Positions 19,435 to 20,023 of a DNA stretch of 64,000 nt are shown piece after piece. The DNA is taken from assembly GCF_963921235.1 (NCBI RefSeq), contig NC_086097.1, positions 81,532,001-81,596,000 on the forward strand, read 5' to 3'. The position numbers and the translations under genes are program-made. A model generated the notes under the pieces. It was not told where the DNA came from and ran no database searches. It was given only the letters and a program-made list of their open reading frames with translations. The DNA comes from Mobula hypostoma. Taxonomy: Eukaryota. Positions within the stretch are counted from its first letter, which is position 1. Every line of letters begins with the position of its first letter.

Positions 19435-20023
19435 ATGCTGTAGTCAGGTTTCCAGTTTGGTCGTCGGCCGCTCAACCATGGTTTTCGGTCTGGCGCCGGA
19501 CGCTCGGAGAGATTCGGCGGGAGGCAGGTGTCCAGCGCTCGGCCGGGGGCCGTGGTCGGGTGGTCGGCGACTTGGCCAGCTCCCCCACCGGACTTAGTCT
19601 GGTGAGGAGGGTGTGAGGACACCCAGCAGGACTAAAAAAAAAAGACCTGACAAAGGGCAGATGAGCTCCTTGTGAGCCAACGGCCATCTTCCGTGGAAGA
19701 GAGTAAAACCTCACCATGTATCTACGAATCCTATGCTATGCATCTAGTTAGAAGAGACATGATGGACTTGGGCGCTGCATCGTGTGCCTGGACCTGCCCA
19801 AGGCCTCCGCCTAAGGAAGGGCCGAGCTCAAAGAAGCAGCCGCGGCTGGAGGCCGACACGGCCTCGGGCTTGAGTTTGGCGGGGGCAGCGGCGGGTGGTG
19901 CCAAGGCAGCCAGCGAGAACAAGCTGGAGGCGAGGCTGTACTCGGTGCTGTCGCAAGATCGAAGAAGATGGAGGTGCATAGCCGCCAACCCCGGATTCGG
20001 GACGGCACCCACTGACTGACTGA
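19435..20023 (+). mobile_element. Probable RTE-clade-derived short retroelement carrying a captured gene fragment
   Basis: LVRRDMMDLG...(A)QDRRRWRCIAANP resembles an RTE ORF C-terminus; (ACTG)3 tail; hairpin-rich GC-rich head; 5' boundary uncertain. Confidence 0.5.
19774..19951 (+). pseudogene. ZFTRAF1: Circularly permuted 178-bp fragment of ZFTRAF1/CYHR1 N-terminal coding region
   Basis: 19810-19951 encodes [14 protein letters not shown]...[10 protein letters not shown] and 19774-19809 encodes (C)[11 protein letters not shown]; rejoined they match the recalled ZFTRAF1 segment [23 protein letters not shown]. Confidence 0.85.

Follow-up and report, generated by a model that had tools for sequence, protein, structure and literature searches.

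The window, by which we mean the whole stretch of 64,000 nucleotides that was analysed, carries on its + strand, at 19447..20023, a full-length copy of a non-autonomous, LINE-derived retroposon of ~587 bp. This copy differs from the consensus of its family at 34 of 584 aligned positions (5.8%), and any flanking direct repeat of its own would measure 5 bp or less. The element is built of successive modules, all of them read on the + strand. It begins with a head (19447..19633) that was aligned with LINE 5' ends and derives from a LINE 5'UTR from ~19505 onwards; folding of the + strand RNA places in this head the two arms of an inverted-duplication hairpin (~19459-19506 and 19525-19572). An A-rich run (19634..19643) comes next and is also part of the LINE 5'UTR, the LINE copies carrying the same ..GGACT(G/A)AAAAACAAGACC.. 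stretch; that it might be the poly(A) tail of a separate RNA was considered and ruled out, since copies of the LINE 5'UTR share it. The run is followed by X2 (19644..19773), another segment derived from the LINE 5'UTR, and the LINE homology ends exactly at 19773. There begin two pieces of the host gene ZFTRAF1: piece C (19774..19813), the 3' 40 nt of the parental segment, which encodes (C)C[T/I]VCLDLPKAS and whose family consensus matches the parent at 39 of 40 positions, and piece B (19814..19951), the 5' 138 nt of that segment, which encodes EGPSSKK...KLE[E/A]RLYSVL and whose consensus matches at 136 of 138. In the parent, piece B lies immediately upstream of piece C. The element then closes with X3 (19952..20010), the last 59 nt of the partner LINE, which encode the C-terminal end of its ORF (..QDRRRWRCIAANPGFGTAPT..) with the stop codon in the tail, and with the 3' tail itself, A(CTGA)3 (20011..20023), which the LINE copies share.

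An open frame of 122 codons (19651..20019, + strand) runs through X2, piece C (out of the ZFTRAF1 frame), piece B (in frame) and the LINE C-terminus, piece B being joined in frame to the last 20 codons of the LINE ORF. Many of the family copies listed have this 122-aa frame in common. The frame is probably incidental, a product of youth plus GC-richness; when the family frame was sought outside this genome with the 67-aa translation of B and X3, the full library gave 0 HMMER matches. ARAGORN found no tRNA gene in the element, an Rfam scan of it returned nothing at or above any gathering score, and its 3' 72 nt fold no differently from shuffled sequences (z = 0.08).

The head (window 19459-19572; consensus 1-138) folds into a near-perfect stem of 58 bp that forms only on the + strand and includes 15 G:U and 4 A:U pairs, with a folding z of -5.8 on the + strand versus -2.5 on the - strand. 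One arm of this hairpin is an inverted duplicate of LINE 5'UTR sequence. In a rough alignment with few LINE copies, the hairpin region shows 12 differences from the LINE 5'UTR, 6 of them A>G, versus 4 differences in the next 189 nt. This pattern suggests that a double-stranded master RNA once underwent A-to-I hyper-editing, which reverse transcription would have fixed in the family.

A repeat family with the block as a fixed module

When window 19430-20070 was used as the query, 2345 first-look candidates were obtained in the genome, and all 40 of the matches that were scored span the whole ~575 bp with 89-92% identity. A 30-mer across the B/X3 junction has 809 genome matches at no more than 3 mismatches and 0 in the control, and the size of the family is put at roughly a thousand copies. 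Of the ten papers listed by a literature search on CYHR1 (ZFTRAF1) in SINEs and sharks, none contained CYHR1 or described a ZFTRAF1-bearing repeat.

We chose 48 other distinct copies with the whole element or with the X1 and X2 segments alone as queries; these are the best-scoring matches and not a random sample. The block formed by pieces C and B is uninterrupted in 46 of them, on many contigs, and the closing junction of the block is identical in all 47 copies that were aligned. The two exceptions are L050 (= L066), in which a 93-bp internal deletion lies within the block between two CCAAGG repeats, and L037, which is broken just past the X2/C junction. A different variant was seen in L065, where consensus positions 35-153 are joined directly to 404-583.

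Flanking direct repeats of at least 7 bp (and up to 12 bp), variable in sequence, were scored in 31 of the 48 copies by a crude longest-common-word test. The 5' truncation is also variable, with copies starting anywhere from consensus position 1 to 191, and the 3' end is constant, nearly all copies reaching the tail. This tail consists of (CTGA)n, usually with 2-6 units, and none was detected in 5 of the 48. Taken together, the target duplications, the 5' truncation and the variable tail indicate that the family has spread by target-primed reverse transcription of the LINE type, and the element, which moreover shares the LINE 3' end, behaves as a LINE-dependent non-autonomous retroposon. Capture by a Helitron or another DNA transposon was considered separately and dropped, in view of the variable length of the target duplications, the 5' truncation and the LINE tail. 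Measured against the majority consensus of the 47 copies, the divergence of individual copies is ~6-7% at all sites and ~3.4% outside CpG (in C, B and X3).

Sampled copies that extend into this region all show the same three junctions. The block therefore entered the family a single time, in its founder, and it records one old founding event and not a fresh insertion at this locus. An initial, sequence-only reading of the window had pictured the block as captured here, with an empty site to be looked for in other repeat copies; instead, a LINE-derived retroposon family carries the block as a constant internal part, and no block-free member turned up among the 48 copies or among 29 further sampled loci. 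The same reading had named misassembly as something that would refute it and proposed a genome-wide count of the junction. With the same arrangement in 46 of 48 copies on many contigs, and with the 809 B/X3 matches, misassembly is excluded; the count thus upholds the arrangement as real, but not as something unique to the locus in the window.

The partner LINE and its internal-deletion derivative

Searches with X1 and X2 alone returned mostly family copies, and it was the search with X3 that revealed the origin of the flanks. The last 64 nt of the element, used as the query, matched 29 loci besides the window, and in 8 of these 29 the likeness to the family begins at consensus position 508, exactly on the B/X3 border. 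Across the tail and the 59 nt that precede it, these eight LINE 3' ends share ~98% identity with the family. Upstream of position 508 the eight loci are homologous to one another and encode a reverse transcriptase (RVT_1, E 3e-35), the LINE reading frame ending in ..QDRRRWRCIAANPGFGTAPTD with its stop within the (CTGA)n tail, and three LINE copies extended further upstream gave an AP-endonuclease domain (Exo_endo_phos, E 2.8e-11). The partner LINE is ~3.3-3.4 kb long, with one endonuclease-reverse transcriptase frame running into the tetranucleotide tail. This layout fits that of RTE-type LINEs, with a single AP-endonuclease/RT ORF within ~3.3 kb and a very short 3'UTR that ends in short tandem repeats, and makes the partner a putative member of the RTE clade.

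At the other end, the 5' region of the LINE is 89-91% identical to the family head. LINE and family run together up to ..GATGAAC(C/T)TGGGC (position 329) and diverge there in all the LINE copies aligned; those that reach the divergence point are c5, L092, L093 and L095-L097, and also L094, whose 5' part differs. Exactly at this point the LINE passes from ..GATGAACCTGGGC to CCCTTGCGAG.., and the family from ..GATGAACTTGGGC to GCTGCACC.., the latter being piece C. No extra bases lie between the LINE and the ZFTRAF1 homology on either side, the sense of ZFTRAF1 is the sense of the LINE, and the block replaces ~2.9 kb of LINE sequence (2,905 nt in one LINE copy). The alignments of the LINE 3' and 5' ends thus establish what the family is: an internal-deletion derivative of an autonomous LINE, in which the LINE 5'UTR is followed by 178 nt from ZFTRAF1, the terminal 59 nt of the LINE and the tail.

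The 5'-proximal region of the LINE has 39 matches in the genome, versus 809 for the family junction, which implies that the short derivative far outgrew its parent. Relative to the LINE 5'UTR (window 19505-19773 compared with L090:3350-3590 and L092-L097), the family head has also lost ~95 nt, 7 nt (TCCCTCT) and 10 nt (GCGTTGTGCA), so the founder or master lineage went through several small losses.

Non-autonomous deletion derivatives of LINEs, and SINEs with a borrowed LINE 3' end, are mobilised in trans. The family described here resembles them in that it keeps the 3' terminus and tail of its partner LINE for recognition, is mobilised in trans and far outnumbers the full-length partners. It departs from them in that its head is the LINE's own 5'UTR, with no tRNA, 5S or 7SL sequence, and in that its middle is a fragment of a host exon; given such a head, it does not count as a canonical SINE. 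The family shows how a piece of a host exon may end up as the fixed core of a successful non-autonomous retroposon.

ZFTRAF1 and the geometry of the permuted block

The peptide obtained by rejoining the two pieces, YSVLCCxVCLD, was searched as a degenerate pattern and has 1 match in the 3.48-Gb assembly and 0 in the reversed-pattern control. This sole match falls on contig C5, in the first exon of the genuine ZFTRAF1 gene; the exon encodes MSAVEEREP... and is followed by GTACAG. By protein search and alignment, the protein of this exon matches ZFTRAF1/CYHR1 of sawfish, skates, catshark, elephant shark, lampreys and tetrapods; it was the parental exon-1 protein that succeeded as the query, the 47-aa translation of piece B having given no match in the protein search. 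Mapping of a skate ZFTRAF1 protein resolved the gene into 4 coding exons over ~158 kb (C5:227933278-228091328, minus strand), with a first intron of ~91 kb. These matches place the host among the cartilaginous fishes.

The parent carries the two pieces side by side on the minus strand, with B ahead of C: L009:1658-1521 is the counterpart of window 19814-19951, and L009:1520-1481 that of window 19774-19813. The window copy is 93.5% identical to the parent over the 138 nt of piece B (E 2.6e-57) and 95% over the 40 nt of piece C (E 7e-14), and the family consensus is identical to it at 175 of 178 bases, the 3 differences being fixed in the family (in 42 of 47, 42 of 44 and 45 of 47 copies). As t19951 and g19774 are neighbouring bases in the parental gene, the permutation is exact to the base. 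In other words, ZFTRAF1 exon 1 supplied an unbroken run of 178 bases, and window 19774-19951 shows this run exactly once around, circularly permuted, with no base gained or lost where it was opened. The parental locus itself is colinear and single-copy, without a tandem duplication, and the parts of the element other than B and C have no match in the 46.7 kb sampled from it.

Several proposals of the sequence-only reading can be judged against this parent. Its ZFTRAF1 translations of 19776-19808 and 19810-19950 (PKEGPSS..., 47 aa, followed by t19951) are as it described them, and it was right both that joining t19951 to g19774 restores the parental order and that the source is one contiguous 178-bp stretch of exon 1; the tandem duplication at the parental locus that it had listed as a refutation does not exist. 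Where it erred was in the closure, which it had placed near 19807-19810, with a possible ccg microhomology and a short direct repeat at the ends of the parental segment. The parental homology reaches 19813 (..CCG[T>C]CTA), which puts the closing junction at 19813/19814, 4 nt further along; comparison of the flanking bases gives 0 nt of microhomology at all three junctions, and the parental ends, ..CTGG/AGGAAG.. and ..GTCTA/CCAGGT.., have 0 nt in common in register and no direct repeat. Piece C stops at ..GTCTA, 4 nt before the exon-1 donor CCAG/GTACAG, and piece B starts in the parent at AGGAAGG, in the context ..GGAG/G.

With the parent in hand, a trivial cause can also be assessed, whether misassembly, a fortuitous likeness to ZFTRAF1 or the in-register copying of a tandemly duplicated parent. 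The recurrence of the arrangement in 46 of 48 other copies and at 809 B/X3 matches over many contigs stands against it, as do the identity of 175 in 178 bases to a parent that is single and colinear and the presence of the contiguous junction at just 1 genomic locus, and we regard its probability as negligible.

Origin of the block

How could one turn of a contiguous exon segment, opened at one point and closed at another, come to lie inside a LINE? Two independent template switches would rarely abut to the base, so something must have connected the end of B with the start of C. A circle-like template would best account for the exact one-turn geometry; its nature, RNA or DNA, and its covalent closure are matters of inference. 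The origin that we favour, with a probability of somewhat less than one half (about 0.45), is that in the founder a LINE reverse transcriptase copied one turn of a circular or end-juxtaposed ZFTRAF1 exon-1 RNA. During synthesis of the founder cDNA, the enzyme would have abandoned the LINE RNA after copying its last 59 nt and moved to an exon-1 RNA of 178-180 nt, either circular or linear with juxtaposed ends. Having gone round this template exactly once and come back to where it began, it would have re-entered the LINE RNA within the 5'UTR. The template could have been (a) a covalent RNA circle, traversed once while closed or else copied from end to end after a single nick, or (b) a linear fragment with close ends, in which the enzyme would jump from end to end and stop where its own product begins. 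It may have been a splicing-related species, such as a freed 5' exon or the product of back-splicing onto a cryptic AG within exon 1, the back-splice version needing a later loss of 2 nt at the junction. The short product, which would have retained both the promoter end and the recognition end of the LINE, could then have outgrown its parent.

Gogvadze et al. (2007; PMC2104539) describe multi-part chimeras formed by LINE reverse transcriptases through template switching, jumps of non-LTR reverse transcriptases between physically separate templates are described in another report (PMC8857657), and Dong et al. (2016; PMC4897178) ascribe non-colinear retrocopies to circRNAs or to structured RNAs with close ends. 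In the element itself, the RNA route is favoured by the position of the block, which sits where a LINE cDNA would leave and re-enter its template, by its orientation on the LINE strand, and by an end that lies 4 nt from a 5' splice site on the exonic side, as a splicing-derived RNA would give.

The sequence-only reading had seen in the block the fossil of a small DNA circle. Of that proposal the circle is what survives, in that the one-turn geometry best fits a circle-like template; the DNA nature fares worse, with the deletion junction, the LINE sense and the proximity to the splice site all pointing to RNA and reverse transcription. In the form that would fit the present data, a circle of ~178 bp from the GC-rich first exon of ZFTRAF1 would have been linearised between t and g; a full-length genomic LINE, losing 2.9 kb while a double-strand break was repaired, would have taken it up as filler by end-joining and then become the family master. 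Such an event would yield an exact one-turn permutation of a contiguous, GC-rich first-exon segment, of a size within the microDNA range; end-joining permits three blunt junctions, and the rest of the element is indeed a single LINE with an internal deletion. MicroDNA, however, typically shows microhomology or direct repeats at its ends, and the ends of the parental segment have neither. A DNA circle also fails to explain why one end falls within the exon at 4 nt from the 5' splice site, makes the LINE-sense orientation a 1-in-2 coincidence, and has left no block-free deletion derivative or empty master among the loci sampled (48 and 29). The block resembles microDNA and other small eccDNA in size, in its GC-rich first-exon origin and in the circular topology that the permutation implies, and differs from them in the lack of microhomology at the parental ends and in its setting, which is the body of a retroposon and not a break-repair scar at a unique locus. 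We consider a DNA microcircle in the founder distinctly improbable, and one captured at the window's own locus is excluded outright by the whole-element matches and the 809 junctions.

A circle might also be dispensed with altogether. If an exon-1 RNA had been cut once between t and g, a LINE reverse transcriptase could have jumped from end to end over the two sibling fragments, taking the 5' piece first and then the 3' piece, before going back to the LINE RNA, and the exact abutment would then reflect one cleavage and not the closure of a ring. Jumps of non-LTR enzymes to separate templates (PMC8857657) and LINE chimeras with two switches (PMC2104539) are on record. In this element the junctions are all free of microhomology, and a freed 5' exon would naturally end close to where the 3' piece stops, both in keeping with such jumps. 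The route nevertheless takes one jump more than a circle does, and the consecutive use of two fragments from one rare mRNA is improbable unless they were held physically together. In the variant in which two switches abut by chance, the coincidence would be of the order of 1 in several hundred, as estimated from the segment length. Overall, an origin from sibling fragments seems to us somewhat unlikely.

The copying of a circular or end-juxtaposed RNA, which remains our preferred origin, has its own difficulties. The closing junction is not a canonical back-splice: the circRNA-retrocopy signature of a donor joined to an acceptor is absent, with piece C stopping 4 nt before CCAG/GT, and a fit of the donor to a cryptic AG needs a 2-nt deletion plus a T>C change, the two extra junction bases of this fit being kept in 0 of the 47 aligned copies. 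The 178-nt parental segment is predicted to have no unusual fold that would join its ends (z = -0.56 for a 218-nt parental RNA). Blunt junctions suit DNA end-joining equally well, and a filler-DNA deletion in a genomic LINE copy would yield the same product. Entry into a closed circle, which offers no 3' end, is not the usual mode in which reverse transcriptases jump between templates. The most specific version, that the block is the fossil reverse transcript of a non-canonical exon-1 RNA circle (donor to cryptic AG), copied for one turn by an RTE-like LINE enzyme in the germline and amplified about a thousand-fold as the core of a mobile-element family, seems to us unlikely.

The element has similarities with two kinds of reverse-transcribed chimera, and differences from both: (i) The LINE template-switch chimeras, bipartite and tripartite, of Gogvadze et al. 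(2007; PMC2104539) also have a short LINE 3' end fused directly to the same-orientation copy of a cellular transcript, flanking target duplications and, in some cases, more than one switch within one cDNA. Unlike in those chimeras, here the cDNA returns to the LINE RNA and the cellular piece bridges an internal LINE deletion; moreover, this piece is circularly permuted. The product is a master element with ~10^3 copies and not a one-off pseudogene. (ii) The circRNA-derived pseudogenes treated in PMC4897178 are likewise retrocopied gene sequences with a non-colinear junction, and include, in the mouse, 33 circRFWD2-derived copies that share one junction, among LTR sequences. Their diagnostic junction is a back-splice that joins annotated exons, whereas here the junction lies inside exon 1, 4 nt from the donor, and is no canonical splice pair; and here exactly one turn was copied and is embedded in a LINE derivative.

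The family offers a clean and datable case of an exact one-turn, non-colinear copy without a canonical back-splice. If its template was an RNA circle, circRNA-derived retrocopies would extend beyond mammals, and a mechanism would connect them with template switching by LINEs and with the origin of SINE-like families. Should the exon-1 RNA-circle reading in particular be true, the block would directly attest, in a genome, the in vivo use of small RNA circles as templates by LINE reverse transcriptases, and would show that such events can found repeat families, here in a cartilaginous fish.

For annotation, the family is a trap: roughly a thousand ZFTRAF1-like matches in this genome are copies of a repeat, and the real gene is single, with four coding exons, and lies elsewhere. 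In the search with the skate ZFTRAF1 protein, the other 100 genome matches were all repeat copies.

Elsewhere in the window, 16700-18236, 27422-28273 and 30682-31590 are fragments of another LINE-like repeat, 74-82% alike and in both orientations, which are unrelated to the RTE-like partner LINE. Finally, 35673-37260 and 45874-47267 hold a set of inverted-repeat arms, 88-97% complementary and ~9-11 kb apart, and are probably two copies of yet another element in opposite orientation.
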